From: Patescibacteria group bacterium | Lineage (GTDB): Bacteria > Patescibacteriota > Patescibacteriia > UM-FILTER-42-10 | Direction of reading: 5' to 3' | Length of the DNA: 52,301 bases | Assembly: GCA_041666485.1 (NCBI GenBank) | Contig: JBAYGW010000006.1 | Coordinates: forward strand, 1 to 52,301 | Shown: positions 5,608-43,601 of the stretch, piece by piece | Layout: the number at the start of each line of letters is the position of its first letter | How positions within the stretch are numbered: the first letter of the stretch is position 1 | The notes under the pieces: generated by a model | What the model was told of the DNA's origin: nothing | The model's input: the letters and a program-made list of their open reading frames with translations, nothing else | The model's database searches: none | Translations under genes and position numbers: made by a program

Positions 5608-5644
5608 ACCTTTTCAGTACAATAACAAATCAATCGCTTGCTAT

Positions 5645-7423: not shown

Positions 7424-7519
<96 letters not shown>

Positions 7520-24144: not shown

Positions 24145-24321
24145 ATGGAGCAATTACTAACCCTCAAGGAAGTAACGGAGATCCTGCGCGTTAGCGAAAG
24201 GACAGTTTATCGTTACATTGATTCGGGTGAGTTAAAAGCGATTAAGATCGGGCAGTGGCGTTTCAGCCAAGAAGATCTTAATCGTTTTATATTCAGTAAA
24301 AAAACGGAAGGCCATGTTTAA
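24145..24321 (+). CDS. Excisionase-family (MerR-like) helix-turn-helix DNA-binding protein, 58 aa; below the ORF-track length cutoff
   Basis: My translation is MEQLLTLKEVTEILRVSERTVYRYIDSGELKAIKIGQWRFSQEDLNRFIFSKKTEGHV. It matches the excisionase-type HTH pattern (LT.kE.A..L.VS..TvYr.i..G.l.a.kiG..wRf...dl..f). Its stop TAA (24319-24321) overlaps ATG 24314 of the giant gene. Confidence 0.75.
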   Translation: MEQLLTLKEVTEILRVSERTVYRYIDSGELKAIKIGQWRFSQEDLNRFIFSKKTEGHV

Positions 24322-27300
24322 CCGAAAGAACAAACTGGAATTGGTACACCAAATAGTGCGTGGCTCCAAAAGAAGGGGTGTCCCCTCTCTATTGGCATTC
24401 GTATTGATCATGCTTTTTGCGTCATTGACAATTCTTATCTTCGCCAATATTGCTATTCAAAATCATCACTCGGAATCAGCGGGTCTTGTCTATAAAACCA
24501 CCGTGGCCGGTGATGTTATTATTCGTACCAGCCCGTCGGATTGTACCGGCTGGTTAAACCCCGATTTAGCAAAGAACATTGACCTGCTTGGCTCTTCATC
24601 AACAAAGGAATTTAATACCAATAATTCAGCATCATACACCAACACTCCTTACGAAAACTTAGGCGATGTTGCGGAGTTTGAATTAGCCAATGCAAAATTG
24701 GTCTGCGGAGGTTTCCAGTTGGCGGAGAATATCCCACCCGAAGCGGTAGATATTGTTGGAACTATCAGTTTGTCTTTTGCCACAGAAACATTTGATAACA
24801 ACGAAGATATTGTTGTTTTTTCCTATTCAATGGACGGCGGTAAGAACTGGAAGGCAGTTGACTCCTTCGCCCTGCTGGAACAAATGAATAATCAAACCAG
24901 GGAAGGATATTGGTCCTATATTATTCCTGATTTGAATGAACTAAAAAAGAGTGAAGATTTTTTGGTAAGAGTCCAATATGTTTCTGAACCGAACAAACAA
25001 CCGGCGACTGCTTACGTAGACGGAATCGCACTTGATATACAATATTTTGAAGAAAAAAGAGACAGTGGAAACTTTGGAGAGATACAAGTTACTAACAAAG
25101 AAGGGATTAACTCCCAAACCACCGCGGTCGCAACGATTGAGGTTGAAAAGAATTCAACTTTCGGATTATTGGGCGTTCCTACTAAAAAAAGGGAGGTTAA
25201 ATCTGTACAGTTAATACACCCGGACGGATCTGTCGCTGAACCGGAAACAAAAATTGAAGAAAAAGAAAATGGCACGACAAAACAAAAAGAATATTCAATC
25301 CAGCCGGTAAATTTTGATAAGCCGGGTGTTTATAAAGCTACTTTCGCAATTGAAGAGAATGGGGTGGTTGAAGAAAAAACTGAGGAATTCGCTTGGGGTG
25401 TCTTATCTTTAAACAGCACGAAATCCGTATATAACCCGGGGGAAACCGCCAATTTAAGTATTAGCGCCTATAATGGTAACGGTGATTTTGTGTGTGATGC
25501 GGATCTTTCCATACAAGTTACAAACCCAAAAGGAAAAGTTGCGACATTATCCACCGCGGAAGGCAGTATTCTTAAATCGCCGCAATGCGGACCAAATATT
25601 GTAACAAATACCGCTGATTACATTACAAGCATTGAAGATTTGTCCGTCGGCCAATATCAATTGAATATCACTGGAGTTATTGATGGAACAACTTATCAGG
25701 CTGCGGAAAGTTTTTCTGTTGAAAAAGACATTCCGTTTGACATTACACGCATCGGTCCAAGTAGAATATACCCGATTGCGGAATATGAAATGTTCTTAGA
25801 GGTCATACCAAAAGATGATTATTTCGGAACAGTCACTGAATTAGTTCCCGACTTAATTCAAGTTTCAGACATCAATGAAAATGGTCTGCTTAGTACTACC
25901 GATGAAAATAATAATTATATTAATTGGCAGGTTGACTGGAAAAAAGGGAAAGCTTATACATTGTCATACAAGTTTGAATCACCGACGCTGGTTGACTACC
26001 ATTTTAAACTGGGACCGGCTTCATTTGTCAACTACAATAACCCGGACAAAAAAGCTGACCCGCTTGCTGAAACAACCAGCTGGCAGGAGACAAGGCCTTG
26101 GCTGATAGAATCAGATAGTATGGCCGACAAAGAACATAACTCCTATATAGACGGGGATACAAACCGAGTTGAAATCATCAATGAAAAACAACTTCGTTAC
26201 CGAGCAGAAAACAGTGAAATTAAAGATCGGTTTTTCCCAAATAATAATTTCTTCCAAGGACCTGACAATAGTTGGCATATTGTAGAAACGCAACTGGATA
26301 TTATCAGCATGGGTGACAGCCGCGTTTCATTCAACGTGAACGGCAAACCACTTATTTTGACACCGGCAGTTGTCATTGGTGGAGTAACCCAACCCATAGA
26401 TACTTTGTCAGCAGATTATCGTGCTCAATTACAAATGCGTCTGGAGGTTCAGAAAATTGATCAGGGAAATAAATGGTCACACATCTTTTTCCGGTTACCC
26501 GAGATTGAAGCGATTGAATTTTTAGTGGAACCGGACGATCACACTATAACTAATGCAAATCCAACATCATTGCTTGTTGACGACCAACTCCTATTGAATT
26601 TTTCTGATCTTGTTGCCTCCGGATTTACCGTTTCGGTTACTCCAAGCAAAATACGAGTTACCAATCTGAAAGACGGCTGGAACACACTGGATCCGACTGA
26701 TACTTTCTACTCTTCAACCGGAGCGGATGGTCAGATAACCTATGGTAACTCAATATATACTGCGACTACAAATGGTACCACATCATTGATTGAAGACAAT
26801 CAATTAATAGTACCATCTTCTGAAACAAGAAGTTTTCTTTCATTTGATACATCATCAATTAGTGATACTGCGACAGTTAGCGCGTCAGATGTCAATACGT
26901 ACGCCGAGTCTTTTGCCAAATCAAAGACTCTAAATACTACTTACTCTATTCAATACTACAGCGGACAGAATGGCATTGGCGCCACACTTGATTCAAGTTC
27001 TGCCGACTGGAACAGCTGTACTACTAGCCATGGTACTTTGAACTGGTCCAACAGTGTCGGTTGGAAATCACAATCACTCACTTCTCCGGCCAGCGCCGTC
27101 AATCTAACCGGCGATACCGATTTTAAACTAGTTGAAGATTTTACTGTTTCAACCGGTGAATATAAGCGGGTAGTTATGCGCCAAACGGAATACGCAGATA
27201 CTACTTCAGACCCGTATTTAGATGTCACCTATACGGCCGGCATTAACGTCTCCGGTAACGCATATAATGAAAACTCCACAGCTGCCCTCACCGAGTGCGA

Positions 27301-30300
27301 CGGTTCTACTAACATGATTAATCTACGGGTGCAAAGCACCACTTATCAAACTTCCTGCAATGATACAACCGGGGCTTTTACTTTCACCGGCGTAGCGACA
27401 CCATCCAGTTCTGAAGCGATGATTATCTGGATTGACGGTCAGACCCCGGACGGTTCAACCGTGAATCAATACTCAGGAACCGGTGACGTTACAGGCATGA
27501 CTGTCCAGGAAAACTCCGTAACCGTCCACAATGACTCCGGCGCATCATATGTCAGTAATTCTGATTTGAATACATTTGATAATGGTGATGATGATGACAT
27601 CAACTATACGGTTTCAACAAGCGACCTGATGATTGAGGACGGGCACCGGCTATTGATCAAGACCAACGAATACCTGGATGCCGGTGGTATAATTACGACC
27701 TCTCCCGCTGCTACACAAAGTGCCATGGATGGTGATATTTATCTGGAATCCGGCGCGGCAATCTCTATTGGTGCCTATGCGCTTTCAATCGGCGGTGACT
27801 ACACAGTAGAAAGTTCCGCGGGAATAATATTTACTACCGGACAAATAACTACTTTTACCGGAACTACTACCGGATTTTCAATTGATACACCGTTAAATTT
27901 TGACAGCTTGGTATTCAACGGTACCGGCGGCGGATGGACATTTGATGGTGATGCTACGATGACTAATGACCTGACCGTAACCGCCGGTACAATCATTTTG
28001 GGGGCGGCAAGTTATGTCGCGGATGATGTCATAATCAATGGCGGAACACTGGATGTAAGCAGTGGAAATAATTATTCGCTTAGCGTCATGGGCTCCTGGG
28101 ATATTGATGGTGGTAATTTTGAAGCTCGGTCAGGCAATGTAACTTTTAATTCGTACTTTGGGTCAGAGACTATTGACTCCGACGGAACCGGTACTGATTC
28201 TTTTTATGATCTCACATTCAATGATGTGAGCGGACATTGGGATCTTGCTGGAATTTTAGACGTAAATAGAAATCTAACAATTACCGGTGGCACAGTTGAT
28301 AATTCATCCGGCAATTATAATATCAATGTTGGAGGCAGTTGGGATAATGACGATGAATACATCTGTGGTACTGGGACTGTAACGTTTGACGCCACTTCCG
28401 GCACTTTATCAATTGACGCAGACGGAACGGGTGCCGATGCTTTTTATGACCTGACATTTAATGACGGTGGCGGGACAGCTACCTGGCAACTGACAGGACT
28501 TTTAGATGTTAATAGAAATCTTTCTATCGCCGGAGGAACTGTTGATAATTCCGCCGGCAATTACAATATCAACATCGGCGGCGGATACGATAATGATGAC
28601 GGTTATACAAGAGGAACAGAAACAATAACTTTTGACGCGACTTCCGGCACAAACCTAATTGATGGAGACGGGACAGGTAACCAGGACCTTTATAATGTCA
28701 CGTTCAATGACGGTGGCGGAACAGCTACATGGCAATTAACCACTAATTTTGACTGGATATACGGAACTACCACCTTGACTGACGGGGTGTTTGATTTGAA
28801 TAATTATTATTGGTACTCCTACGGTAACTTCAACAAGACCGGGGGTTCATTGCAGATGAATCAGGCATCGGACAATTTAGTTTTTCAGGGTACTTTTACT
28901 ATTTCCGGGGCAGAGGGTGCTGATGTCTTTACGTACGGGACTATCCAGGTGCAGGATGATTTCACTATTTCAGGAGATAATACTTTTGTATTCGGCGGAG
29001 CCGGCAGTCCGCGGGTTGTCTTCACCGGTACAAAGGATCCGACAATATCAATATCCGGCGCTAACAATGTTATTGGATCTAGCACTTATAGTGCGTATTT
29101 TGATATTGCATTTACAAATTCAACCAACACACTGACCTTCCTGACGGCCGTGAATGCCGGACATTGCCGACCACAAGAAGGTAAATTTGTAATCAACGGG
29201 CAAAATCTGAGGTGTGATGGAGTCTTTTACGCATATGCCGGCAGCGGTATTGACATGGCGAGCGGGTCCTTGATTATCGGCAGAGAGTCCTATGCAGGAG
29301 GATCATATAGCCCCTTTTGGTATGAGGCTGGCGCTACAGAGAATATATCCGGGGGAACTATCCAGGTTTATGGATCAGAGCAGGCTACTTACGGCACAGC
29401 CTATTTTGCTGATGGATCTAATTTCACTCCCACCGGCGGAACATTTCAATTTATGGGTACTGCTACCGCTTCCATTTATGTAGCGGAAGTTGATGCTGCT
29501 GACTTCAACTTTTGGGATCTTACTATAGGCAATGGCAGTACAAAAACGGTAGAAATCAATACCGGATCAGTATCAGCAATTGACGTTGATGGTGATCTTA
29601 CCATCACTGCCGGTGCAACACTAGATTCCAACGGAGAACCGTTTGAGGTTGCCGGTAATTGGGATAATAACGGAACTTACACGCATGACAGTAATGCGGT
29701 TACCTTTGACGGAAGCGATACAGACAACACGATTGAAGCCGGCAGCTCTGCATTCTATGATGTCATTTTTCAAGGGCTAGACGGTGCCGGTTTGTGGACT
29801 TTCCAGACCAATGATGCAACTGTTACCAGAACGATTGATATAGATACGAGCGATGAAGTAGTGATTGCCACCGCACGAACGATTACTTGGACCGGATCCG
29901 CTTTCACATTGGACGGGACAATCAGCGGAGCAGGAAAACTTACGATTGATTCTTCTACTACCATACCTACAACCGGTACGCTTTCTAGCATTGTGCGTTT
30001 TGATAGTACAGCCGGTAATACTGCGGTAATGCCGACCCGCACCTATGGAGGCAATGTAGAGATTTATAATAACTCCGCGGTTGCAGCTCGGATTGTTACA
30101 CCGGATATCGGGACACATACAGTTTCTGGCAGTTTAATCGTACAGGCAGCTAACACGCAGAATGTAACTTTTGCCGGAGCAACAAATGACCCCACTATGA
30201 ATATCACGGGCGATCTTGACTTTGGTACTTCAGGAGGAGGTGTCCAAACCATAACCACCGGCGCTAACAAATGGACTGTTGCCGGTAACGTAGATTTAAC

Positions 30301-33300
30301 GGCGGGAACTTTTACAACAGAAGCGGGAAATACTCTGGCCATGACCGGCACAACCAAGCAGATTACTTCTGCCAGTAATCCTTTGCTAAATTTTGAAATC
30401 AGTGCCGGTTCGGTCAATAATGTAGATGCAATGGATGTGAATGGTACATTTGCTATCACAGCTGGTACATTTGACCATCAACATGGCGGAGCGGATATTA
30501 ATATTTTTAGTAACTTTACTATAACAAGTGGCGGAAACTGGCTGCCCTCTGATACATATAAAATAATCTTAGACGGTGACCTGACACTTACTGACAGTAA
30601 CGCCACCCCCGAGGAATTATCATTATTACAAATCGGCGCATCTCCCGATACCACTGATCTTGCCAGTGATATTGCTACCAAAGGAGTAATTGTGCCAACC
30701 GGAGATATTTTCAACAGTCATGGCTATGATATGACTCTGGGAGTTTACGGGATATCAGTTACCGGAACACTTGATTTGACGGACGATGTGGAAACAGATG
30801 AAACCTTTATTACCACCGATGGAGATGTAACATTTGCTTCTGGTTCTGCGGTAACAATTGACCAGTCTACCTTTACTTTTGATGCCACATCCGGCACTGA
30901 TAATATTTTTAACGCCGGAATTCAGGATCTTTATAATTTGGTAATCAATGGAACAGTAATAGTGGAAGTGGAGGATGCCATTGATGTTAACGGTAATCTG
31001 ACAATTACCAGCGGCACATTGGATGTTGTGTCAGGCGAGAATAATGTAATCACTGTAGCCGGCGCGTGGGATAACGATGCAACCTTTGAAGCGCGTAGCG
31101 GAACCGTTACATTTGACGCTACTTCTGGAACCTACAGTATTGACGCCGACGGCACCGGCACGGATGCATTTTATGATCTGACTTTCAACGACGGTGGCGG
31201 ATCGGCAGAATGGGATTTGGCAGGCGCACTTGATGTGAACCGTAATATTGCGATCACCGGCGGAACGGTAGATAATTCTTCTGGCAATTATAATATTAAC
31301 ATCGGGGGAGGTTGGGACAATGACGACAGTTATGTACGCGGCACAGAAACAACCACTTTTGACGGAGCTTCCGGTACATACAGTATTGATACCGACAGCC
31401 CATTAGAAGATGATTTCTACAATGTTGTTATTAATGACAGTGCCGGTTCTCTTCATTTAGATCTAACTTCACAACCGGCACAGATTGACGGCAATTTAAC
31501 TATTACAGACGGAATTCTTGATCTGAATAATTATGACATGTATGTGGTGGGTAACGTTTCTAAAACTGGTGGAAATCTTGAGGTGAACCAAGCAAGTGAT
31601 TTGTTAGCAATTACCGGTAATTTTACCGTATCCGGTAATGATGGATCTGCCATTTTCTCTGACGGTACGATTAGTATTGATGGGAATACTACCATATCCA
31701 ATGATGACACTTTTGGTTGTGTAGCCGGTGGTTGGCCGACATTTAGAATGCAGGGTACAACAAACTCCACCATTTCGGTCTCAGGAGCAAATAACGATTT
31801 TGGGACAGGTACAGAATTTTGTGCATTTACATTACAAAAAACAACGAATTACACTCTTCAACAACTCACAAATATCACCGGCACGACCTTTTATTTTGAA
31901 AATGGTATATGGGATGTAAATGGACAGACCGCTAATTTTTCTGACAAAGTACAAATCAATACGGACGGCGTGTTGAAAATGGCTACCGGCACTTTTACAG
32001 TTGGTCGCAACGGATCGGACGGTGACAACCGTGCTCCTCTTTCATTTTTTATCAGCTCATCAGAAGATATCACGGGAGGAACAATTGAAATATACGGTAC
32101 GGCCAATGCAACTTATGGCTCGCTATTTATAATGGATGGTTCAAACTTTACCCCCACCGGCGGAACAGTAAAGTTTTTAGGGACTGATGCCACAAACACC
32201 CTCTACATTACCGAAGTAAACACGGCGGATTTTAACTTTTACAATCTGGAAATTGGTGATGGTACCAATGCTAAAACATTGAACGTCAATACAGCCGCAA
32301 CCATCCCGATAGACATGAACGGCAATCTGACTATTAATGCCAATGGTACTTTTGATACAAATAGTGAGGCGGTTAAGGTGGCGGGTAATTGGACAAACAA
32401 CGGAACATTCACAGCCGATAGCGGTACAGTAACACTGGACGGTGCGGCTACTCAAACCATATCCGGCACATTAACCGGCAGTTCCGCTTTTTATGATTTA
32501 ACAATTACCAATACTTCCGGCAGCTACACCGGATGCGACACTGCTTTCACGCCGGGCGTTGATTTCGCCGCATCGGCAACATCAACAAACAACTATACGA
32601 TTAATACCGGCAATGTAAAAGTTGAATATAACTCTGGATCAACTTATACCTTCAACAATATCAACTGGGCAGGAACACTGGGTAACGAAATAGTATTCAG
32701 AAATTCCAATCTTACCTCAGGTACTTGGTTATTGAACGTATCAGGAATTCAGTCCGCTGTTTCATATGTAAGTGTTGGCCGTTCTGACGCATCAAGCGGT
32801 GATCAGATTATTGCGTCAGATGGCACCAACACAGATTGTAGTAATAATATTGACTGGTTGTTTTCTTCTTTTTCAGTCTCCGGCAGTATTTATAATGAAA
32901 ATACTACAATTGCCCTTACTGAATGTGACAGTTCTACAAACATGGTCAATCTTAGAGTTCAGGGTACCACCTACCAGACTTCCTGCGATGATACCACTGG
33001 TGCTTATTCTTTTTCTGGGATAACCGGACCGACTACAAACGAATCTATGATCATCTGGATTGAAGGCCAGACTCCGGACGGCGCAGCGGTAAATAAATAT
33101 TCCGGTTCTGGAAACGTTACCGGGATAATTGTGGAGGCAAATGCCCTGACAATAAATAACGATTCAGCTGTCGCAGTCTCCAATACCGACCTGGACACCT
33201 ATGATAGTCGTGAAGATAATGACATCAATTACACGGTTGATTCCGGCAGTCTTATTGTTGAAGACGGTCACCGAATAGTAATTAAAACCAATGAGAATTT

Positions 33301-36300
33301 TACACCGGGAGCGTCAGTTACCACATCCCCCGCTTCTACACAATCCGCCATGGACGGCGATATTTATCTGGCAACCGGAGCAACTTTGAATATGGCAACT
33401 AACGCTCTTTCTGTAGGCGGTGATTTTACGACCGCCGGGACAGTCACAATCACTATGGATTCCGGACAAGCTACCACTTTCACTGGGACCACTACCGGAT
33501 TTGGAATTGAAGCGGAAGATGCTTTTGATAGTGTAACCTTTAACGGTTCTGGAGGCGGATGGACGTTTGATGCCGGCGCTACTCTTAACCATCACTTAAC
33601 AGTAACTGCCGGAACCATTACCCTGGGAGGCACAACTTCTGTCGGTGGTAATCTGACTATCAATGGTGGCACTCTGGATGTAAGCAGTGGCAATAATTAC
33701 GCCCTTTCAGTAGCCGGATCATGGGATATTGATGCTGGAGTCTTTCAAGCTCAGTCCGGCAATGTAACTTTCAATGCGGGATCCGGCACTCTGAGCATTG
33801 ATCCTGACGGTACCAGCACTGACTCTTTCTATAATCTGACTTTCAATGACGGCGGCGGATCGGCAGAGTGGGACTTAACCGGAATTTTAGATGTAAATCA
33901 CAATCTCGCAATCACTGGCGGTACAGTTGATAACTCCGGAGGCAATTATGCTGTTACCCTTGGTGGCGGGTGGGATAACGACGATACCTATACTTGCGGT
34001 ACTGAAACTGTAACCTTTGACGCAGCTTCCGGCACACTACCGATAGACGCGGACGGAACCGGAACTGATTCCTTCTATAACACAATATTTAATGACGGGG
34101 GTGGTTCCGCCACTTGGCAACTGACTACGTTAATGGATGTTAATAATGATTTTACAATCACCGGCGGAACTTTTGATTATAACGGCAGCAACACTCTCAC
34201 AGTGGCCGGTGATTTTACCAACAATGATACAGTAACCGAATCCACCGGTACCCTAAAAATGGATGGCACTTCAGGAACTCAATATATTAATAATACTGAA
34301 GCAACTTCGGCAGAAGCGTCTAATTTATATAATTTGGAAATTGACGATTCCGCTGGAAGCGCCATTGTAAAATCTTATTACCCATTAGACACGAACAATA
34401 ATTTTACTATAACCGGCGGCACGCTGGATATGGAAGAAGCACAAACATATTTTCTCACCTCTTCCACCACTGATGCGGTTGCAAACAACATGCGTATTAA
34501 AACCACTGACCCAGCCGGTACTGCAAACAGCACTTCTTCCTGCAATGATAATGAAACTAATCAGTCAAACCTTGTATGTATTTTAAATCCTGGGTCTGCA
34601 AATATTACATGGGGGGCGCTACCTTCAACAATCCAACAAAAAGGTTACATGCTTAGCGACAATCAGGGTATTACCGGTACATATGCCACGGGTGATTGGA
34701 CGGTAAAGGCAACAGCAACAGAAGTAACTGGTCAGTTTTCCTACCCTACCTATAGGTTAGAAGCACGGCTCTGGAAGGCTTCAACCGCACTCGGTAGTGC
34801 AACTGCCATTACCGACTGGGGGTATGCAGATGTCACAGCAAATATAACCAGCGACGTAACGATTACGTTTAGTGGTGTATCACAAACAACACTCACAAAT
34901 GAGGTGCTTTATGTTGAGTTTGCCGCCTATTTCCGTGGCGACGCTATGGACTTGGGTTCAGGCGGGCCAACATCTATGACACTTACAGTTAACGAAGGTG
35001 GCACAAAACAACAAATTACTACCCCCGCCTTTTCCCCGCAAATCAATGTCGGTGGTAATTGGGACAACAATGATATCTTTTATCATAATAAAGGTACAGT
35101 AGTTTTTGACCCCGCTACTGGGACAAAGACAATTGATTCCACCGGAGCGTCTGAAGATGATTTCTATAACCTCACAATCAACGATGGTGCTGGTACCGGT
35201 ACCGTTCAGTTAACCGGATCTAACTTACAAGTAGATAATGATTTCACCTTAACCGACGGGACGTTTGATTTGAATAATTTGCAGACATTGATCACAAACA
35301 GTTTTACCAAGACCGGCGGCAACATAAACATGGATCAGTCCGGTGATCATATCAACGTAGACGGTAACTTTACCGTGTCCGGTGACGGCGGATCATCTGC
35401 TCTTCAAGACGGATCAATTGTTGTGGCTGGCGATGTTGCAATTTCCAATAATAATGTTTTCCAGATGGGCAACAATACCGGCTATCCTGTTTTCTCTATG
35501 GATGGTGCTGTCAGCAAAACCATTACCGTTTCTGGCACTGGCAATTATTTTGGCACGACAGGGGCAACCGGCGAATTTGATATTGATAAAGCTGGAGGAA
35601 CAGTTGTAAACGCGGGATCTGATCTAGCTATGTGGAATCTGGTTCAAAACACCGGTGGTTTAACCGTTGCCGGTAACTATGTTATTAATGCTGACGGACA
35701 ATATGTCGGACTAGGCGGAGTACTGACAATGAGTAACGGAACGCTTAGTGTCGGCAGTGACAATCTTGCTCCATCTTCCTATGCTAACTTTTATGTTGGT
35801 AGCGGGTGGACTGAAGCAATCTCCGCCGGTACGATTGAAGTTGACGGCGCCGGTCATACCACCAATGAAGCAGCTTATTTTGCCAACGGTTCGGCGTTTA
35901 CACCCACCGGCGGAACATTTAAACTAATCGGTAATGACAATTCCACGATTCAAATTGATGAATTGGATACTGCCGATTTCAATTTCTATGACTTGACTAT
36001 CGGTGATAGTTCAAATACAAAAACAGTTGATATAGATGCGGCATCAACCGATATCTTTGAAGTAACTGATAACATTTTAATCAATCCTAATGCCACTTTT
36101 GATACTAATAGCGAGCCGGTCTATATCGGGGGAAATTGGAACAATAACGGTACCTTCACCGCGGACAGCGGAATAGTAACTTTCAATGCTAGTGATACTA
36201 ATAATACTATTGATGCGGGTACCGGTTCATTCTTTGATATTATCTTTGAAGGGGGTGATGGATCAGGAACTTGGTACTTTCAAAATGATAATGCCACAAT

Positions 36301-38512
36301 TACTCATACACTTGACGTAAACACTAGCGATATAGTTTCAATCAATACCGGAATAAACGTTACCTGGACCGGTTCATCTTTTATTCTCGGTGGAACAATT
36401 AACGGATTAGGAACATTAGTAATTGATTCCACTACCATCATCCCAACTACCGGGACTCTATCTTGTATTGTAAGATTTGACGCAACCAATGGTAACACTA
36501 GTGTAATCCCGGAAAGAACATATTATACAATAGAACCATATAACAGTTCAGATGTGTCAGCCAGAACTATTGTACTTGGCACCGCCTCATCACAGGTTAT
36601 TACACTTTCCGGCTATATGTATGTGGTTGCTGACGGAACGCAGAATATTACTCTCAGTGGTACTAGTTATAATCCAACAATCATTGTTGCAAAAGCATTT
36701 GACTTTACTGGCACAGGTGATGGATCAGAGGTTGTATTATCCGGTACAAGCAGTTGGTCTGTTTCAGGCAATGTGGATTTTACCGGGGGCACTTATACAG
36801 CTTCAACCGGAAATACATTAAGAATGAATGGGCTTTTAAAAACCATCACTACGACTGGCAACACCTTGCAGAATTTTGAAGTATACGGAAATGATACTAC
36901 TTCAGTCGGAGCGCTAGACGTTAATGGCACATTCACTGTATCCAGTGGAGCATTTGTACAGGCCGCTGATGCTGATTTGAATGTTGCCGAGGACTTCACA
37001 TTGGCATTAGGCACAACATTCACAGCCGCTTCCGGTACGGGAAAGCTATATCTGGACGGTGATTTGACGCTTACTGACAATACCACATCCAAGCAAGACT
37101 TGGGGAATGTATATATCGGCACCTCTCCGGATACCACGGATCTTGCCAGTGATATTGCTACCAAAGGTATTACAATAAATTCCGGTGATGTGTTAAATAC
37201 CCATGGTTATGAAATGACGATCGGCGTTTATGGTCTGAACGTGATCGGAACTTTGGATATGACTGATGATGTAGAAACAGACGAGACCTTTGTAACTACG
37301 GACGGTGATGTAACATTCGGTGCCGCATCTTCCGTAACCGAGGATCAGTCAACAATCACGTTTGATGCGGCTTCCGGTACTGACAATATATTTAATCCGG
37401 GCGTTCAAAATATAAATAACTTGGTAATCAACGGCGCCAGTTTAACAGTTGAAGTGGAAGACCCGATCATTGTAAATAATGATTTAACAATAACCAGCGG
37501 GATCTTGGATGTCGTATCCGGTGAAAACAACCAAATCAGTTTAGGCGGTGACTGGACCAACAACGGTACTTTCACAGCACAAAATGGAACAGTACTATTG
37601 AACGGTTCCTCTACACAAATTCTATCAGGTACCATGACAACCACATCCCAGTTTTATAATCTGACTGTCAGCAACAGTTCTGGCAGTTACTCCGGATGCG
37701 CGACTTCTTTCACGCCGGGAATTGATTTTGCCGCGGCTGCCACAATCGGCGGAACATACACAATAACCACCGGCGATGCCAAAGTAGAATATAATTCCGG
37801 ATCAGCTTATACGGCAAATAATATTAATTGGAACGGTGGAGCATATGGAGACGAAATAATTTTCCGTAATTCAGATCTTGTTTCAGGTACTTGGACATTA
37901 GATGTTTCCGGGACACAAACTGCCGTAAAATATGTTGATGTCGGTCGTTCAGACGCATCAAGTGGTGATACAATTGACGCTCGGCATATTTCTAATGTTG
38001 ACTGCAGTAACACAACCAATTGGGAATTTGATTCCATTACCCTTAGTATCTCTGATACTACTATCGGTTTTGGTGATCTGACCTCTGCTAACGCCCGCTG
38101 GGCAACCGGCGATGTCGCCGGATCCGACAGTAAGGTAGTTGCTCATACAATAACCGCCTATACCGCCGCTGATAACGGATATCTACTGACCTATAACGGT
38201 CCACTATTAACCAGCGGTTCGGATACAATTACTGCCGCCGCAATTACCAATGATGATGACGGCACGGCAGGAACAGAACAATTCGGATTAGGTATCACCA
38301 CAGCCGGTGACTGCACAATTAATAGCGATTATAATGCTAGCAGTCCCGCGGAGTATAAACTTGCAGCAAGCACAACAACAACCCTTTGTTCCGAAACTGT
38401 GCCTACAGCTTCCGAAGTAATCAGTGCCTATTATATCGCCAACATCAGCAGTGAGACCGAAGCGGGTAATTATTCTACGAATATAACTTATATTATGACC
38501 GCTACGTTCTAA
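24314..38512 (+). CDS. Giant (4732 aa) cell-surface repeat protein: N-terminal signal-anchor, non-repetitive ~970-aa head, nested beta-helix-like repeats, C-terminal ~160-aa domain shared with the three ~360-aa paralogues
   Basis: An uninterrupted 14.2-kb ORF in AT-rich DNA. TM LLAFVLIMLFASLTILIFANIAI. A recurring ~75-aa unit G.VDNSSGNYNINIGGGWDNDD.Y..GT.T.TFDA.SGT..ID.DGTG.D.FYDLTFNDGGG. The C-terminus ISDTTIGFGDLTSANARWATGD...EAGNYSTNITYIMTATF aligns with the C-termini of 39435, 40560 and 46195. Confidence 0.85.
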   Translation: MFNRKNKLELVHQIVRGSKRRGVPSLLAFVLIMLFASLTILIFANIAIQNHHSESAGLVYKTTVAGDVIIRTSPSDCTGWLNPDLAKNIDLLGSSSTKEFNTNNSASYTNTPYENLGDVAEFELANAKLVCGGFQLAENIPPEAVDIVGTISLSFATETFDNNEDIVVFSYSMDGGKNWKAVDSFALLEQMNNQTREGYWSYIIPDLNELKKSEDFLVRVQYVSEPNKQPATAYVDGIALDIQYFEEKRDSGNFGEIQVTNKEGINSQTTAVATIEVEKNSTFGLLGVPTKKREVKSVQLIHPDGSVAEPETKIEEKENGTTKQKEYSIQPVNFDKPGVYKATFAIEENGVVEEKTEEFAWGVLSLNSTKSVYNPGETANLSISAYNGNGDFVCDADLSIQVTNPKGKVATLSTAEGSILKSPQCGPNIVTNTADYITSIEDLSVGQYQLNITGVIDGTTYQAAESFSVEKDIPFDITRIGPSRIYPIAEYEMFLEVIPKDDYFGTVTELVPDLIQVSDINENGLLSTTDENNNYINWQVDWKKGKAYTLSYKFESPTLVDYHFKLGPASFVNYNNPDKKADPLAETTSWQETRPWLIESDSMADKEHNSYIDGDTNRVEIINEKQLRYRAENSEIKDRFFPNNNFFQGPDNSWHIVETQLDIISMGDSRVSFNVNGKPLILTPAVVIGGVTQPIDTLSADYRAQLQMRLEVQKIDQGNKWSHIFFRLPEIEAIEFLVEPDDHTITNANPTSLLVDDQLLLNFSDLVASGFTVSVTPSKIRVTNLKDGWNTLDPTDTFYSSTGADGQITYGNSIYTATTNGTTSLIEDNQLIVPSSETRSFLSFDTSSISDTATVSASDVNTYAESFAKSKTLNTTYSIQYYSGQNGIGATLDSSSADWNSCTTSHGTLNWSNSVGWKSQSLTSPASAVNLTGDTDFKLVEDFTVSTGEYKRVVMRQTEYADTTSDPYLDVTYTAGINVSGNAYNENSTAALTECDGSTNMINLRVQSTTYQTSCNDTTGAFTFTGVATPSSSEAMIIWIDGQTPDGSTVNQYSGTGDVTGMTVQENSVTVHNDSGASYVSNSDLNTFDNGDDDDINYTVSTSDLMIEDGHRLLIKTNEYLDAGGIITTSPAATQSAMDGDIYLESGAAISIGAYALSIGGDYTVESSAGIIFTTGQITTFTGTTTGFSIDTPLNFDSLVFNGTGGGWTFDGDATMTNDLTVTAGTIILGAASYVADDVIINGGTLDVSSGNNYSLSVMGSWDIDGGNFEARSGNVTFNSYFGSETIDSDGTGTDSFYDLTFNDVSGHWDLAGILDVNRNLTITGGTVDNSSGNYNINVGGSWDNDDEYICGTGTVTFDATSGTLSIDADGTGADAFYDLTFNDGGGTATWQLTGLLDVNRNLSIAGGTVDNSAGNYNINIGGGYDNDDGYTRGTETITFDATSGTNLIDGDGTGNQDLYNVTFNDGGGTATWQLTTNFDWIYGTTTLTDGVFDLNNYYWYSYGNFNKTGGSLQMNQASDNLVFQGTFTISGAEGADVFTYGTIQVQDDFTISGDNTFVFGGAGSPRVVFTGTKDPTISISGANNVIGSSTYSAYFDIAFTNSTNTLTFLTAVNAGHCRPQEGKFVINGQNLRCDGVFYAYAGSGIDMASGSLIIGRESYAGGSYSPFWYEAGATENISGGTIQVYGSEQATYGTAYFADGSNFTPTGGTFQFMGTATASIYVAEVDAADFNFWDLTIGNGSTKTVEINTGSVSAIDVDGDLTITAGATLDSNGEPFEVAGNWDNNGTYTHDSNAVTFDGSDTDNTIEAGSSAFYDVIFQGLDGAGLWTFQTNDATVTRTIDIDTSDEVVIATARTITWTGSAFTLDGTISGAGKLTIDSSTTIPTTGTLSSIVRFDSTAGNTAVMPTRTYGGNVEIYNNSAVAARIVTPDIGTHTVSGSLIVQAANTQNVTFAGATNDPTMNITGDLDFGTSGGGVQTITTGANKWTVAGNVDLTAGTFTTEAGNTLAMTGTTKQITSASNPLLNFEISAGSVNNVDAMDVNGTFAITAGTFDHQHGGADINIFSNFTITSGGNWLPSDTYKIILDGDLTLTDSNATPEELSLLQIGASPDTTDLASDIATKGVIVPTGDIFNSHGYDMTLGVYGISVTGTLDLTDDVETDETFITTDGDVTFASGSAVTIDQSTFTFDATSGTDNIFNAGIQDLYNLVINGTVIVEVEDAIDVNGNLTITSGTLDVVSGENNVITVAGAWDNDATFEARSGTVTFDATSGTYSIDADGTGTDAFYDLTFNDGGGSAEWDLAGALDVNRNIAITGGTVDNSSGNYNINIGGGWDNDDSYVRGTETTTFDGASGTYSIDTDSPLEDDFYNVVINDSAGSLHLDLTSQPAQIDGNLTITDGILDLNNYDMYVVGNVSKTGGNLEVNQASDLLAITGNFTVSGNDGSAIFSDGTISIDGNTTISNDDTFGCVAGGWPTFRMQGTTNSTISVSGANNDFGTGTEFCAFTLQKTTNYTLQQLTNITGTTFYFENGIWDVNGQTANFSDKVQINTDGVLKMATGTFTVGRNGSDGDNRAPLSFFISSSEDITGGTIEIYGTANATYGSLFIMDGSNFTPTGGTVKFLGTDATNTLYITEVNTADFNFYNLEIGDGTNAKTLNVNTAATIPIDMNGNLTINANGTFDTNSEAVKVAGNWTNNGTFTADSGTVTLDGAATQTISGTLTGSSAFYDLTITNTSGSYTGCDTAFTPGVDFAASATSTNNYTINTGNVKVEYNSGSTYTFNNINWAGTLGNEIVFRNSNLTSGTWLLNVSGIQSAVSYVSVGRSDASSGDQIIASDGTNTDCSNNIDWLFSSFSVSGSIYNENTTIALTECDSSTNMVNLRVQGTTYQTSCDDTTGAYSFSGITGPTTNESMIIWIEGQTPDGAAVNKYSGSGNVTGIIVEANALTINNDSAVAVSNTDLDTYDSREDNDINYTVDSGSLIVEDGHRIVIKTNENFTPGASVTTSPASTQSAMDGDIYLATGATLNMATNALSVGGDFTTAGTVTITMDSGQATTFTGTTTGFGIEAEDAFDSVTFNGSGGGWTFDAGATLNHHLTVTAGTITLGGTTSVGGNLTINGGTLDVSSGNNYALSVAGSWDIDAGVFQAQSGNVTFNAGSGTLSIDPDGTSTDSFYNLTFNDGGGSAEWDLTGILDVNHNLAITGGTVDNSGGNYAVTLGGGWDNDDTYTCGTETVTFDAASGTLPIDADGTGTDSFYNTIFNDGGGSATWQLTTLMDVNNDFTITGGTFDYNGSNTLTVAGDFTNNDTVTESTGTLKMDGTSGTQYINNTEATSAEASNLYNLEIDDSAGSAIVKSYYPLDTNNNFTITGGTLDMEEAQTYFLTSSTTDAVANNMRIKTTDPAGTANSTSSCNDNETNQSNLVCILNPGSANITWGALPSTIQQKGYMLSDNQGITGTYATGDWTVKATATEVTGQFSYPTYRLEARLWKASTALGSATAITDWGYADVTANITSDVTITFSGVSQTTLTNEVLYVEFAAYFRGDAMDLGSGGPTSMTLTVNEGGTKQQITTPAFSPQINVGGNWDNNDIFYHNKGTVVFDPATGTKTIDSTGASEDDFYNLTINDGAGTGTVQLTGSNLQVDNDFTLTDGTFDLNNLQTLITNSFTKTGGNINMDQSGDHINVDGNFTVSGDGGSSALQDGSIVVAGDVAISNNNVFQMGNNTGYPVFSMDGAVSKTITVSGTGNYFGTTGATGEFDIDKAGGTVVNAGSDLAMWNLVQNTGGLTVAGNYVINADGQYVGLGGVLTMSNGTLSVGSDNLAPSSYANFYVGSGWTEAISAGTIEVDGAGHTTNEAAYFANGSAFTPTGGTFKLIGNDNSTIQIDELDTADFNFYDLTIGDSSNTKTVDIDAASTDIFEVTDNILINPNATFDTNSEPVYIGGNWNNNGTFTADSGIVTFNASDTNNTIDAGTGSFFDIIFEGGDGSGTWYFQNDNATITHTLDVNTSDIVSINTGINVTWTGSSFILGGTINGLGTLVIDSTTIIPTTGTLSCIVRFDATNGNTSVIPERTYYTIEPYNSSDVSARTIVLGTASSQVITLSGYMYVVADGTQNITLSGTSYNPTIIVAKAFDFTGTGDGSEVVLSGTSSWSVSGNVDFTGGTYTASTGNTLRMNGLLKTITTTGNTLQNFEVYGNDTTSVGALDVNGTFTVSSGAFVQAADADLNVAEDFTLALGTTFTAASGTGKLYLDGDLTLTDNTTSKQDLGNVYIGTSPDTTDLASDIATKGITINSGDVLNTHGYEMTIGVYGLNVIGTLDMTDDVETDETFVTTDGDVTFGAASSVTEDQSTITFDAASGTDNIFNPGVQNINNLVINGASLTVEVEDPIIVNNDLTITSGILDVVSGENNQISLGGDWTNNGTFTAQNGTVLLNGSSTQILSGTMTTTSQFYNLTVSNSSGSYSGCATSFTPGIDFAAAATIGGTYTITTGDAKVEYNSGSAYTANNINWNGGAYGDEIIFRNSDLVSGTWTLDVSGTQTAVKYVDVGRSDASSGDTIDARHISNVDCSNTTNWEFDSITLSISDTTIGFGDLTSANARWATGDVAGSDSKVVAHTITAYTAADNGYLLTYNGPLLTSGSDTITAAAITNDDDGTAGTEQFGLGITTAGDCTINSDYNASSPAEYKLAASTTTTLCSETVPTASEVISAYYIANISSETEAGNYSTNITYIMTATF
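27240..38030 (+). repeat. Two diverged super-repeats (~5.2-5.6 kb each) inside the giant gene, each with nested sub-repeats
   Basis: Unit 1 starts ~27240 (NVSGNAYNENSTAALTECDGSTNMINLRVQSTTYQTSC). Unit 2 starts ~32870 (SVSGSIYNENTTIALTECDSSTNMVNLRVQGTTYQTSC). Matching landmarks include SPA.TQSAMDGDIYL (27.7/33.3 kb), DTTDLASDIATKG...DVETDETF.TTDGDVTF (30.65/37.13 kb) and the terminal FTPG.DFAA...VGRSDASSGD blocks (32.5/37.7 kb). Unit 2 carries a unique insert of ~0.85 kb at ~34.2-35.05 kb. Confidence 0.8.
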
Positions 38513-39434: not shown

Positions 39435-40538
39435 TTGAATATTAACCCTTTGAACAACATGTTTAAAAAAATAGGTGTTTACCTGCTAATATTTGCTTTA
39501 GTTTTTTTATACTACCCGATTAAACCGGCGAATGCTGCTAATTTAACTAAAATTACTGATACGCTTTCTACCTTAACCTCAAACGCGGTCGCCAACCATA
39601 CTATTACATTTGTAACACCTACAGGGGTTGAAGCAAACGCTGATACGATTACAATTGATTTAACCGATTTCACCATCGGTTCTGTTGATTATACAGATAT
39701 TGATCTCGCGGTAGATGGTGATGCCAACTGTAACGGCGCCTGGACGGATAAAACACTCGCAGCGGCAAACAACACTGGAGTATGGGGAGCAACTATCACT
39801 TCATCAGTACTCACGCTTGACGCACCAACTGATGCTGCAGCCGGCGAAATTACTGCCGGAGTTTGTGTGCAGGTAGAAATTGGCCTTAATGCCACATCCG
39901 GTGTTGCAGGAAATGCACAATTAACAAACCCAAACGATGCAAACACGCATGTTTTTGAAATCGCAGGAGTATTTGGTGATACCGGGCAATTCGCATTAGA
40001 TTTTGTCGCGGATGACAGCGTCAATGTAACTGCCACTGTTGATCCTTCCATTACATTCGCAATTTCAGATACTGCTATCGGATTTGGTGATCTTGTTTCT
40101 GCCAATGCCCGCTTTGCCACATCAGATGCTACCGGATCCGATACGGATTCTACCGCCGCTCACACCTTATCAATAGGAACGAATGCAACTGACGGATATA
40201 TTATCACCTACAATGGAGCAACACTTACAAGTGGTGGTGACACTATTTCAGTAGCGGCAATATCTAATGATGAAAACGGAACGCCGGGCAGTGAACAGTT
40301 TGCCATGGGATTTTCAACAAACGGTAACACAACAATTCCGGCAGGATATGATCACAATGCAACAGCGGGTAGTCGCGACTGGACTTTTGTCGCCAGTACT
40401 CTAACTACCATCGCTTCAGAAACAGCACCGACCGCTACCGAGACAATTAGCGCATTTTATCTGGCGAATATCGCGGCTGATACCGAAGCGGGAAGTTATT
40501 CCACCGATATCACCTACATCGCAACAGCAACCTTTTAA
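39435..40538 (+). CDS. Secreted two-domain surface/fibre subunit candidate, paralogue 1 (367 aa)
   Basis: Signal peptide ...YPIKPANA|ANLTK. The mature N-terminus ANLTKITDTLSTLTSNAVANHTITFVTPTG is conserved. The C-terminal domain (from ~40041) is shared with the giant protein and ends ...EAGSYSTDITYIATATF. Start is TTG 39435 (AAGGTG 8 nt upstream), alternatively ATG 39459. Confidence 0.8.
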   Translation: MNINPLNNMFKKIGVYLLIFALVFLYYPIKPANAANLTKITDTLSTLTSNAVANHTITFVTPTGVEANADTITIDLTDFTIGSVDYTDIDLAVDGDANCNGAWTDKTLAAANNTGVWGATITSSVLTLDAPTDAAAGEITAGVCVQVEIGLNATSGVAGNAQLTNPNDANTHVFEIAGVFGDTGQFALDFVADDSVNVTATVDPSITFAISDTAIGFGDLVSANARFATSDATGSDTDSTAAHTLSIGTNATDGYIITYNGATLTSGGDTISVAAISNDENGTPGSEQFAMGFSTNGNTTIPAGYDHNATAGSRDWTFVASTLTTIASETAPTATETISAFYLANIAADTEAGSYSTDITYIATATF

Positions 40539-41642: not shown

Positions 41643-41718
41643 TAATTCCAATAATTTGGTATACTGATATCAATAGTTGAAAGGTTATTAATACCATATT
41701 TATAAAAACAAAAGGGTG

Positions 41719-42711
41719 ATGTCAAAAAACATTACAAAGCTGATATTTGGTGCGCTACTGATTGTAGGGGGCTTTTTTGTTATACCAAAAGCGCAAGCAC
41801 TTACTCTTATCCCCCCCTCATTTGAAACATCAGTTGATCCGGGCGTGACTACGGAAACCACCGTTAAGCTGTACAATGAAACTCAGGAAACACTCAACCT
41901 TTATCCGGAAGTCGTCAGCTTTACGGCTGAAGGAGAAACCGGCAACCCGACATTTGACTTCAATGCCCCAGCTGAAGGAGTCGCTTCATGGTTTACTTTG
42001 CCCGAGGGACCGATTACACTCACCGCCGGCGAAAGAAAAGTAATTGATGTCAAAATTACCCCTCCCGTTGATGCCGAGCCAGGTGGTCACTATGCAACTG
42101 TTTTTTTCGGAACGTCATCACCCAATCTGGAAGACCCGGGCAGTCTAGCGCTATCCACAAAACTCGGTTCTCTGTTTTTACTCAGAGTGTTTGGCGATAT
42201 TAAAGAGTCGGGCAGTATCAGTGAATTTGGCTTAAACGGAAATAATACTCTTTCCAGACTGCCGGCAACTTTCTTTACCCGCTTTCAAAATGATGGCAAC
42301 ATTCATCTAAGACCTACCGGCACTATTAAAATTACCAATATGCTAGGCGGTGATACTGCTGCTTTGGAGTTCAACCCCAAGAAAAGTTGCACCCTCCCCG
42401 ACACCATCAGAAAATATGAAACGATTTGGGAAAAAGATCAGATCAGAGAAGTTACCGGCAATTTTTGGAATAAATTTTGGACAGAGTTTTCCAATGAAAA
42501 AAATAATTTTGCCATCGGCAGGTATAAGGCGACAATTTCATTGGACGCGGGTAATCTAGTTCAAGATACTGCAACTATTACTTTCTGGATTATGCCCTGG
42601 AGAGTAATATCAGTCGCTTTGATTATACTCGCTTTCGTAATTGTCTTACTGATATTTTTGATTAAGAAATACAATCAGTGGATCATCAACAAAGCGCGGA
42701 AAAGGAAATAA
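41719..42711 (+). CDS. Signal peptide + Ig-like/beta-sandwich ectodomain + C-terminal TM anchor protein, paralogue A (DUF916/DUF3324-like architecture)
   Basis: Signal FGALLIVGGFFVIPKAQA. LTLIPPSFETSVDPGVTTETTVKLYNETQETLNLYPEV is the pattern of a chaperone/Ig-like first strand. GGHYATVFFGT is present. The C-terminal TM VISVALIILAFVIVLLIFLI is followed by KKYNQWIINKARKRK. I prefer ATG 41719 over GTG 41716. Confidence 0.75.
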   Translation: MSKNITKLIFGALLIVGGFFVIPKAQALTLIPPSFETSVDPGVTTETTVKLYNETQETLNLYPEVVSFTAEGETGNPTFDFNAPAEGVASWFTLPEGPITLTAGERKVIDVKITPPVDAEPGGHYATVFFGTSSPNLEDPGSLALSTKLGSLFLLRVFGDIKESGSISEFGLNGNNTLSRLPATFFTRFQNDGNIHLRPTGTIKITNMLGGDTAALEFNPKKSCTLPDTIRKYETIWEKDQIREVTGNFWNKFWTEFSNEKNNFAIGRYKATISLDAGNLVQDTATITFWIMPWRVISVALIILAFVIVLLIFLIKKYNQWIINKARKRK

Positions 42712-42719
42712 TAAGAATC

Positions 42720-43601
42720 ATGCGCAATATTAAAAACGCTTCAATCATTATTGGCGTTTTTTTTGTTATGCTTTTTTTATTTATCCCTGAAATTGGCAAA
42801 GCAGACACTGTATCAGGATCACTGAATGTATCTGTTTCAGCGATAGTGCAGGCACCGCCACCACCGGAAGAGCCTGATACGATAGTGCGATTTACTGGTT
42901 TAGCCTATCCGGGATCGGAACTTACCTTTGAACGTAATGGGACTCTTATGGCTACTGTCCCCGCTGATCCGGCCGCAAAATTTGATGTTGCGATTGAAAT
43001 GGATCCAGGAACTTATACTTTTTCTATATATGGCAGTGATGCGGACGGACGTGAGGGGCCGGTTTTTAATATCTCAGTGACGCTATCCTCGGGAGTCACA
43101 ATAACAATAACCGGAATATTTTTAGGACCGACTATTGAAGCGGATACATCGTCAGTTCAGATAGGAGATACAATCACTTTCTTAGGGGTTACAATCCCTG
43201 ACAGTAAGGTGAATCTGTTTGTCAGCCCGGAGACAGTAACCAGTTATGATGTAAATTCCGATAGTAATGGACTATGGTCAAAATCACTGATTGCCGGTGA
43301 AGATCTATTAACCGAAGGAAATCACGAAGTACGTTCTAAATCTACATCCGATCAGGGCGATATTTCAGAATATAGTAAAACTGTTGCATTTACTGTTACC
43401 GAGGAAACTAAACCGGACCCATGTGAACTTGCCTCCCGAGCGGATTTAAACTGCGATGGACGTGTAAGTTTAGTTGATTTTAGTATCTTAATGTTCTATT
43501 GGCAGGAAAATAACCCGGCAAATGCAAGGGCAGATATAAATAAAGACGGTGCGGTAAATATTGTAGATTTTAGCATTATGATGTTTTATTGGACCGGCTA
43601 A
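42720..43601 (+). CDS. Secreted protein with Ig-like domains and a C-terminal dockerin (type I-like duplicated Ca-binding repeat)
   Basis: Signal IIIGVFFVMLFLFIPEIGKA. Dockerin repeats DLNCDGRVSLVDFSILMFYW and DINKDGAVNIVDFSIMMFYW. Start is moved to ATG 42720, because the track's GTG 42678 overlaps the previous gene. Confidence 0.8.
   Translation: MRNIKNASIIIGVFFVMLFLFIPEIGKADTVSGSLNVSVSAIVQAPPPPEEPDTIVRFTGLAYPGSELTFERNGTLMATVPADPAAKFDVAIEMDPGTYTFSIYGSDADGREGPVFNISVTLSSGVTITITGIFLGPTIEADTSSVQIGDTITFLGVTIPDSKVNLFVSPETVTSYDVNSDSNGLWSKSLIAGEDLLTEGNHEVRSKSTSDQGDISEYSKTVAFTVTEETKPDPCELASRADLNCDGRVSLVDFSILMFYWQENNPANARADINKDGAVNIVDFSIMMFYWTG

Follow-up and report, generated by a model that had tools for sequence, protein, structure and literature searches.

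A 4,732-residue protein encoded on contig JBAYGW010000006.1 of a Patescibacteria group bacterium (assembly GCA_041666485.1) ends in a pilin domain of the Pam pilus type and is probably the tip subunit and adhesin of a Pam-type pilus. That the protein, called the giant below, is a real secreted beta-solenoid fibre is very likely. Its gene stands at the head of an operon on the 52,301-nucleotide (nt) stretch that was analyzed, called the window, and consists of the following parts (aa, amino acid positions in the giant):

24314..38512, + strand: giant open reading frame (ORF), 4,732 aa, ATG start, uninterrupted over 14.2 kb
24314..24460, + strand: N-terminal basic region and 26-residue hydrophobic segment (aa 1-49), from hydropathy and family N-termini
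24461..27247, + strand: non-repetitive head of ~930 aa (aa 50-978), from family scans and self-BLASTP
27248..32875, + strand: super-repeat 1 (aa 979-2854), opening with a small segment (VSGNAYNEN...), followed by beta-helix units and closed by a cap-like module (aa ~2740-2854)
28256..29764, + strand: internal duplication, copy 1 (aa 1315-1817), from self-BLASTP
30980..32500, + strand: second copy of the internal duplication (aa 2223-2729), with 43-65% identity to the first, from self-BLASTP
32876..38047, + strand: super-repeat 2 (aa 2855-4578), 40-62% identical to super-repeat 1
34466..34978, + strand: inserted domain of ~170 aa (aa ~3385-3555, ~0.5 kb) within one 82-aa unit of super-repeat 2
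38039..38509, + strand: C-terminal Pam-pilus pilin domain (aa 4576-4732, 157 aa), non-repeat, acceptor only, from NF058581

The giant ends in an acceptor-only Pam pilin domain

The Pam pilus was described in 2026 from cryo-electron microscopy of filaments of Ca. Mycosynbacter amalyticus (Troman et al., bioRxiv 10.64898/2026.03.03.709456). In its pilins PamA and PamB, an N-terminal domain with a nine-strand beta-sandwich is joined by a linker strand to a truncated immunoglobulin (Ig)-like C-terminal domain with a groove that takes the linker of the neighbouring subunit. PamT is a single-domain tip pilin of 25.6 kDa without linker, for which a tip logic was proposed, PamC and PamD are PapD-like chaperones that have a transmembrane helix at the C-terminus, and PamR is the base tether (10.64898/2026.03.03.709456).

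When the C-terminus of the giant (37901-38509) was scanned alone, it matched the NCBIfam model NF058581 (CPR_Pam_pilin_C, 'Pam pilus system pilin subunit') with 59.0 bits (E 5.5e-16), the curated cutoff being 55 bits. The domain was missed when the whole protein was scanned, and Pfam and NCBIfam scans of the full 4,732-aa giant gave no significant match; as a practical lesson, long repetitive proteins need a scan of their terminal domains by themselves. The domain shares 60% identity (E 5e-50) with the corresponding domain of the ~360-aa pilins encoded downstream. Exactly four genes in the window carry a Pam domain. Of the residues that are invariant or near-invariant in the pilins, 16/19 and 30/33, respectively, are kept in the giant, which indicates that its groove is under the same constraint as that of the pilins.

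The pilin linker could not be identified in front of this domain, where the sequence is unrelated. A position-specific scoring matrix (PSSM) of the linker, run over the whole giant, gave 7.9 bits at best, versus 42-45 bits in the pilins, and the N-terminal beta-sandwich domain of the pilins was not found in the giant either (phmmer E of at least 0.067). Since the groove is present and the linker absent, the giant is expected to accept a strand and to be unable to donate one. A protein without linker is not a shaft pilin; an acceptor-only subunit would be incorporated first and would therefore be located at the distal tip of the pilus.

With the PamT equivalog model NF058579 the giant reached 31.9 bits (cutoff 240), aligned over model positions 78-241 only, and no small PamT-like gene was found in the window. 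Among the curated models, the giant belongs only to the Pam pilin-domain family and is recognized neither as a shaft pilin nor as PamT. It shares with PamT the acceptor without a linker, which supports the view that it may work like a tip pilin, as opposed to being a member of the PamT family.

The repeat body is predicted to form a beta-solenoid

In tiled self-BLASTP, aa 979-2856 aligned colinearly with aa 2855-4578 at 40-62% identity and with E-values down to 1e-106, and the DNA of the two copies is 66-72% identical over 300 nt. An earlier note on this DNA had described two diverged super-repeats at ~27.24-32.87 and ~32.87-38.03 kb, and these limits were borne out (27248-32875 and 32876-38047). 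Its repeat units of ~75 aa were recovered as well: a hidden Markov model (HMM) grown from three clear units identified 30 units across both super-repeats, with a match length of 75 aa and a spacing of 82-84 aa (246 nt). The sequence motifs quoted in the note were all found at their places, and the 44-nt stretches at 30641 and 37124 differ by exactly 2 mismatches, as it had said.

Two further elements of the earlier description had to be corrected. The internal duplication of super-repeat 1 exists, but is wider than, and shifted from, the proposed pair at 28.75-30.0 and 31.45-32.4 kb. Super-repeat 2 does contain a unique insert, but this is shorter than the ~0.85 kb given before, as aa 3275-3350 still form a repeat unit. 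The insert splits one unit, with positions 1-28 of the unit HMM in front of it and 5-75 behind it, and gave no family match. Both super-repeats are closed by conserved cap-like modules (aa ~2740-2854 and 4460-4578), and the same module also terminates shorter members of the family.

The super-repeats had further been proposed to start with a CarboxypepD-reg/Ig-like segment. This assignment was not supported: no match to PF13620 (CarboxypepD_reg) was obtained at aa ~979-1100 and ~2855-2975, even when these regions were scanned alone with E up to 10, and the segment was modelled with low confidence by AlphaFold2 (AF2; predicted local distance difference test, pLDDT, of 30-57). PF13620 is present in some distant homologues of the repeat body, and a fold of this type is therefore still conceivable. 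Glycine, asparagine, threonine and aspartate make up about 45% of the repeat body. No Pfam or NCBIfam match to Beta_helix, PATR, Pmp and similar curated repeat families was found at E up to 1.

The structure of aa 979-2178 was predicted with AF2, with an input alignment of internal copies and homologue fragments. The mean pLDDT was 79.1, with a predicted TM-score (pTM) of 0.62, and values were mostly 80-95 over aa ~1338-2168. This region was modelled with 95 short strands in 825 residues (49% strand, <1% helix), which would correspond to about 26 residues per three-strand rung. The repeat body is thus predicted to be a continuous all-beta solenoid, and the beta-helix or solenoid fold claimed in the earlier note is, as a prediction, what was obtained. 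The top matches of the model in the PDB are all right-handed beta-helices, namely the autotransporter passengers SepA, Hbp, Ag43 and pertactin, the two-partner-secretion adhesin EtpA, VacA, PL6 lyases and tailspikes. In the viral library BFVD, tail-fibre-type Peptidase_S74 proteins matched the solenoid model at E 1e-7.

Each super-repeat resembles a complete module of N-terminal segment, beta-helix and cap, which argues for two rods in tandem instead of one rigid rod. The giant is therefore more likely composed of two complete rods, the lengths of which can be estimated from the model at about 29 nm and 23 nm (~2,950 helix residues, 26 per rung, 0.48 nm per rung). Of the long rigid fibre or adhesin that had been proposed, the solenoid was retained; a stand-alone, single rigid rod was not, as a pilin domain ends the protein and two rods are likelier.

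N-terminus and head

The ORF of 4,732 codons at 24314-38512 and the non-repetitive head in front of the super-repeats were found as described before, the head spanning aa 50-978. The single N-terminal transmembrane segment of that description corresponds to a single hydrophobic segment (aa ~23-48) with a Kyte-Doolittle 19-mer peak of 2.88; after aa 60 the value never exceeds 1.4. Its role as a permanent anchor is doubtful, as relatives carry cleavable signals: canonical A-x-A sites are present at the same position in some family members (P0201, P0124). By sequence, aa 1-49 could be either a Sec signal or a signal-anchor, and the segment may serve export instead of lasting attachment to the membrane. 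The signal is presumably cleaved, as location at the tip would require.

In the head, MG2 and Reelin-B beta-sandwich matches were obtained, all of them sub-threshold. Its region aa ~70-575 is conserved in 51 of the 150 best family representatives. Among close orthologues, the head is the least conserved part of the region from the head to the early body (63-79% identity over aa 1-700). Nothing was found in PDB sequence searches with the head, the repeat, the C-terminus, the pilin profile and the chaperone profile, and Rfam gave no match near the giant gene.

Orthologues differ in repeat number

Three complete orthologues of 4,727, 4,648 and 4,393 aa were assembled from overlapping loci on related contigs, which derive from separate metagenomes and assemblers. 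The 4,727-aa orthologue is 80% identical to the giant and colinear with it, with offsets of at most 5 aa. One unit of ~84 aa near aa 1400 is missing from the 4,648-aa orthologue, and in the 4,393-aa orthologue, which is 339 aa shorter, super-repeat 1 is rearranged. The gene call of a fourth orthologue gives 5,666 aa, of which the C-terminal 2,918 align colinearly with aa 1814-4732 of the giant, with about 935 extra residues upstream of this part. Repeat number thus truly varies, and the gain and loss of repeats among orthologues of 4,393-5,666 aa agree with the growth by segmental duplication that had been suggested.

Gene lengths near contig ends have to be treated with caution. The '1,178-aa' gene at 82-3618 of locus L004, upstream of the pilins, is not a short orthologue, being a giant truncated by the end of a 7.9-kb contig, with 81% identity to aa 3555-4732. 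Head orthologues with 67-75% identity were recovered by contig scans. No match was obtained with the head in a word-indexed protein database, which seems to be limited to shorter proteins (matches of the repeat search were below ~1,900 aa).

Divergence along the protein is uneven. In aa 3901-4200 (36014-36913) the giant is 47-55% identical to its closest orthologue (80% overall) and 68-77% identical to a distant one (60% overall). The homologous block of super-repeat 1, aa ~1800-2100, is likewise a patch of low identity. This mosaic pattern points to recombination among alleles or cassettes.

Genes rich in repeats are easily mis-assembled from short metagenomic reads, and the nested repeats might in principle be a collapsed or chimeric assembly product. 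This is extremely improbable given that the copies are 40-62% identical in protein and about 70% in DNA and that the ORF is uninterrupted over 14.2 kb. Moreover, four orthologues, complete or partial, among them the colinear one of 4,727 aa, were obtained from separate samples and with separate assemblers. The earlier argument against an artefact, made from the divergence of the copies, is strengthened by the colinear orthologue from other assemblies.

Distribution of the repeat and of the pilin domain

In an exhaustive HMMER search over 1.84 billion cluster representatives, aa 979-2178 matched 1,029 proteins with E-values of 1e-3 or below, 222 of which reached 1e-30 or below; many are 2,000-7,700 aa long. 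Among the best 150 relatives of the repeat body, the head (aa ~70-575) was present in the 51 mentioned above and the C-terminal domain in 12. The same repeats are present in shorter proteins of Omnitrophota, Chloroflexota, Planctomycetota and other groups, joined there to SLH, Por_Secre_tail, LamG, fn3 or PKD domains. By these searches the repeat is a widespread surface-protein module that has no curated family. The same repeats are found elsewhere on other attachment modules (SLH, Por_Secre_tail), which suggests that attachment is the task of the C-terminal module and that the helix is the payload.

The named homologues of the pilins all belong to Patescibacteria, the Candidate Phyla Radiation (CPR), namely Nomurabacteria, Kerfeldbacteria, Uhrbacteria and Paceibacterota, in line with the restriction of the Pam system to CPR/Patescibacteria. 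The closest genome record is a metagenome-assembled genome of a groundwater member of the Patescibacteria.

Organization of the operon

The giant gene is surrounded by the following genes:

24145..24320, + strand: HTH_17 (excisionase/MerR-like) gene, 58 aa; its stop overlaps the ATG of the giant (ATGTTTAA)
39435..40538, + strand: Pam-type pilin 1 (367 aa), NF058581 70.1 bits
40560..41642, + strand: Pam-type pilin 2 (360 aa), AF2 pLDDT 91.9, two beta-sandwich domains
41716..42711, + strand: candidate pilus chaperone (PamC/PamD-like), 331 aa, signal peptide and C-terminal transmembrane helix, from sequence
42720..43601, + strand: dockerin protein with signal peptide, strand-like N-terminal segment, poly-Pro, Big_13 Ig domain and dockerin
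43603..44754, + strand: cohesin-like protein, 383 aa, C-terminal transmembrane anchor
44729..46081, + strand: cohesin-like and Big_13 protein, 450 aa, C-terminal transmembrane anchor
46195..47286, + strand: Pam-type pilin 3 (363 aa), NF058581 72.3 bits
47331..48344, + strand: second chaperone-like protein, 337 aa, signal peptide and C-terminal transmembrane helix

The three small pilins scored 65.3, 70.1 and 72.3 bits with NF058581. They consist of a cleavable signal peptide, a beta-sandwich N-terminal domain, the conserved linker ADDSVNVTATVDP and the C-terminal pilin domain; conservation across 52 homologues is highest in the linker and the C-terminal domain. Foldseek searches with the two-domain pilin model gave only generic tandem-Ig adhesin and pilin matches with a TM-score of ~0.2. 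The candidate chaperones are conserved, with weak Ig-like and WxLIP_PGBD matches only.

Dockerin_1 matched the dockerin protein with 39.6 bits (cutoff 22.9, E 6e-10). The Cohesin matches of the two anchored proteins are borderline (23.2 and 24.2 bits, cutoff 24.1). The mature N-terminus of the dockerin protein, DTVSGSLNVSVSAIV and then PPPP, is kept in the window and in seven other loci, eight in all, and looks like a donor strand; it was not among the top 15 matches of the linker PSSM in the window and shows no specific similarity to the linker. As a speculation, this N-terminus might plug the last pilin and so dock the pilus on the cohesins. An RbmA-like PamR was not recognized in the operon of the window.

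The gene order of giant, one to three pilins, ~340-aa protein with signal and transmembrane helix, dockerin protein and cohesin-like transmembrane proteins is kept in eight further loci, two of them in the complete genomes CP060223.1 and CP060230.1, with giants of 2,540-6,592 aa. At the C-termini of the giants of L001, L003, L010, L016, L017 and L018, NF058581 scored 53.2-76.8 bits. The HTH_17 gene is found upstream of every orthologous giant with 91-97% identity and is more conserved than the head of the giant; its product may be a dedicated regulator of the giant.

Between the giant and pilin 1 lies an ORF (38714-39238, + strand) resembling an IS200-like/REP-associated tyrosine transposase (Y1_Tnp E 2.5e-5; NF047646 60 bits, under the cutoff of 80). 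It is confined to the window, and relatives have a 138-nt spacer at this position. Upstream of the giant, a 73-aa ORF (23620-23841, + strand) is located in a GC-rich island (56% versus 26-40% in the flanks); its product is present in orthologous loci with 84%, 56%, 53% and 47% identity and has no family match. A few kb past the operon, L001, L003, L010 and L012 contain several small T4SS_pilin (PF18895) genes after NTP_transferase and SBP genes, the counterpart of this region in the window being probably 50692-51393 and beyond. The T4SS_pilin genes point to a possible second surface-filament system adjoining the pilus operon in these relatives. Two putative surface proteins are encoded further upstream, a Peptidase_M23 and FG-GAP repeat protein (5411-7117) and a He_PIG Ig-domain protein (9177-9803). 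The window also contains a 5S rRNA gene (15-123) and a tRNA-Ser(CGA) gene with a long variable arm (7424-7513).

Discussion

In the mechanism proposed here, the giant would be exported through Sec, and most of it would fold as two tandem right-handed beta-helical rods, ~55 nm by estimate when taken together, with the ~930-aa, beta-sandwich-rich head at the far N-terminal end. The last 157 residues would form a truncated Ig-like Pam pilin domain, whose open groove would be completed by the linker strand of the next pilin through donor-strand exchange. Incorporated first, the giant would sit at the pilus tip, and the three ~360-aa pilins would polymerise beneath it, with the two membrane-anchored ~335-aa proteins assisting as chaperones. 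At its base the pilus is perhaps retained by the dockerin protein through binding to both membrane-anchored cohesin proteins, and cohesin-dockerin anchoring would then connect the pilus to the cell. Head and rods together would serve as a long-reach adhesin or host-recognition device, the length and surface of which could be altered by segmental duplication, gain or loss of units and recombination of cassettes. Both the tip position and the adhesin role are deductions from the domain composition. More tentatively, the whole class of giants of 2,500-6,600 residues might be Pam tip subunits, ~50-nm two-rod 'harpoons' in which head and cassettes set the host range and which stand on a cohesin-dockerin-anchored base; this extended proposal is rather doubtful.

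FimH and PapG combine an N-terminal binding part with an acceptor-only C-terminal pilin domain, which makes them the first subunit and places them at the distal tip. The giant follows the same acceptor-only logic, with the part presumed to bind ahead of the C-terminal pilin domain. In contrast to FimH and PapG, there is no usher or outer membrane here, and the binding part is about 15 times larger and a predicted beta-solenoid instead of a lectin. No sequence homology to their pilins or chaperones was detected (hhalign probabilities 6.6% and 1.8%). Profile-profile comparisons with seven chaperones of E. coli K-12 and with 14 pilins were negative; homology to chaperone-usher systems was rejected on this basis, which leaves a functional and structural analogy only. 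As a whole, the giant would act in the manner of a chaperone-usher tip adhesin that is fused to a beta-helical stalk of the autotransporter kind.

The stalk is reminiscent of the autotransporter passengers Hbp, Ag43, pertactin and Fap2 and of the two-partner-secretion adhesins EtpA, HMW1 and FHA, which are likewise long right-handed parallel beta-helices with many short rungs serving as adhesive stalks. Unlike these Gram-negative adhesins, the giant has no beta-barrel translocator or two-partner secretion (TPS) domain and no detectable sequence relation to them, and it belongs to a monoderm CPR bacterium in which attachment would be through a pilin domain. Giant surface proteins that are thought to mediate host contact have been described in Vampirococcus lugosii (PMC8080830) and Omnitrophota (10.1101/2023.11.21.568195). 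Those proteins, too, are several thousand residues long, rich in repeats and either secreted or located in the membrane, and they belong to ultra-small bacteria with an episymbiotic or predatory way of life; related beta-helix repeats do occur in proteins of Omnitrophota. They differ in their domains (WD40, PKD, integrin-like, antiparallel beta-helix and SecA-like), and for none of them has a terminal pilin domain or a place at the start of a pilus operon been reported.

The closest known system is the Pam pilus itself. The C-terminal domain, the architecture of the neighbouring pilins, the chaperone-like genes with signal and transmembrane helix, the CPR restriction and the PamT-like acceptor logic are the same. 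However, PamT consists of one domain, while the acceptor domain of the giant is the last part of a beta-helical protein of 4,732 aa. In place of a recognized RbmA-like PamR, the operon encodes a dockerin protein and two cohesin-like proteins with transmembrane anchors, and the lineage is Paceibacteria-like, not Saccharimonadia or Microgenomatia.

Several observations speak against a role of the giant as tip subunit and adhesin. Its score with the PamT model is far under the cutoff, so that it is not a PamT orthologue, and the entry of a pilin linker into its groove is deduced from sequence. No giant subunit is described in the Pam paper, where only an uncharacterised 'tail fibre-like protein' near pam operons is mentioned (10.64898/2026.03.03.709456); no description of a giant Pam-domain subunit was found in the literature. 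The PDB fold matches of the solenoid are not significant (best E 0.058, TM-score at most 0.17), which is expected when the query is a long bent rod. In the head, no adhesin, lectin or binding domain was recognized by Pfam and NCBIfam scans. At the sequence level, the candidate chaperones do not resemble the seven E. coli chaperones of the PapD/FimC type (hhalign probability 1.8%). Finally, the N-terminal hydrophobic stretch of the giant is 26 residues long and has no clean A-x-A site; if it were left uncleaved, the protein would be tethered to the membrane and could not reach the distal tip.

This last point is the core of an alternative in which the giant is a fibre anchored in the membrane by an uncleaved signal-anchor, with the head at the membrane and the rods pointing outward. 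The distal Pam domain would then capture a strand of a pilin or of the dockerin protein and cross-link the giant to the pilus or envelope, or into a fibrous coat. The length of the segment is that of a transmembrane helix, about seven basic residues precede it, and fibrous CPR surfaces have been attributed to giant membrane proteins (PMC8080830). However, the homologous giants P0201 and P0124 have canonical cleavable signals at the same position, the described Pam components all use cleavable Sec signals, and an acceptor-only pilin domain has a defined role at the tip. Membrane anchoring is therefore considered unlikely. Less likely still is a primarily enzymatic role of the beta-helix, as a polysaccharide depolymerase or lyase comparable to phage tailspikes and PL6 lyases that would be presented on the cell surface or pilus and degrade the host envelope, a function that would be compatible with location at the tip. 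PL6 alginate lyases, a fucoidan lyase and tailspike depolymerases are indeed among the fold matches, but adhesin-type beta-helices rank equal or higher. There is also no glycoside-hydrolase, lyase or Beta_helix family match anywhere in the giant, and its about 30 highly regular units have no recognizable catalytic insertion.

The shared C-terminal domain could also be a non-polymerising anchoring module that docks on a membrane partner, with no pilus being formed, as in the WxL/Csc systems of Lactobacillales. There, too, small and large proteins share a C-terminal domain and are encoded beside a transmembrane-anchored DUF916-type (WxLIP) protein, and in the window several small proteins and a very large one share a domain next to a transmembrane-anchored partner. 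WxLIP_PGBD (PF06030) matched 8 of the 11 ~335-aa partners scanned, always over the same region, at E 0.006-0.25 and under the 27.3-bit cutoff. The WxL domain (PF13731), however, was detected in none of 52 pilin-family members at E up to 10. The shared domain passes the curated Pam pilin model instead, and Pam pilins of the same architecture have been solved as donor-strand-exchanged filaments. Because of the lack of WxL matches and the curated Pam match, this explanation was dropped as very improbable, and the tip subunit of a Pam-type pilus is the preferred interpretation of the giant.

A large part of bacterial diversity belongs to the CPR/Patescibacteria, which live attached to other microbes, and how they recognize their hosts is mostly obscure. 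The mode of contact between the Pam pilus and the host was called unresolved by its discoverers (10.64898/2026.03.03.709456). A fast-evolving, repeat-built giant with an acceptor domain, encoded at the head of the pilus operon, is an obvious candidate for host contact. If the extended proposal for the whole class is correct, these proteins would be the largest pilus subunits known. In the giant, a pilin domain would mount a cargo of several thousand residues; such a cargo would be possible since the described Pam system has no outer-membrane usher that it would have to pass. The operon also widens the range of Pam-type operons to Paceibacteria-like lineages.

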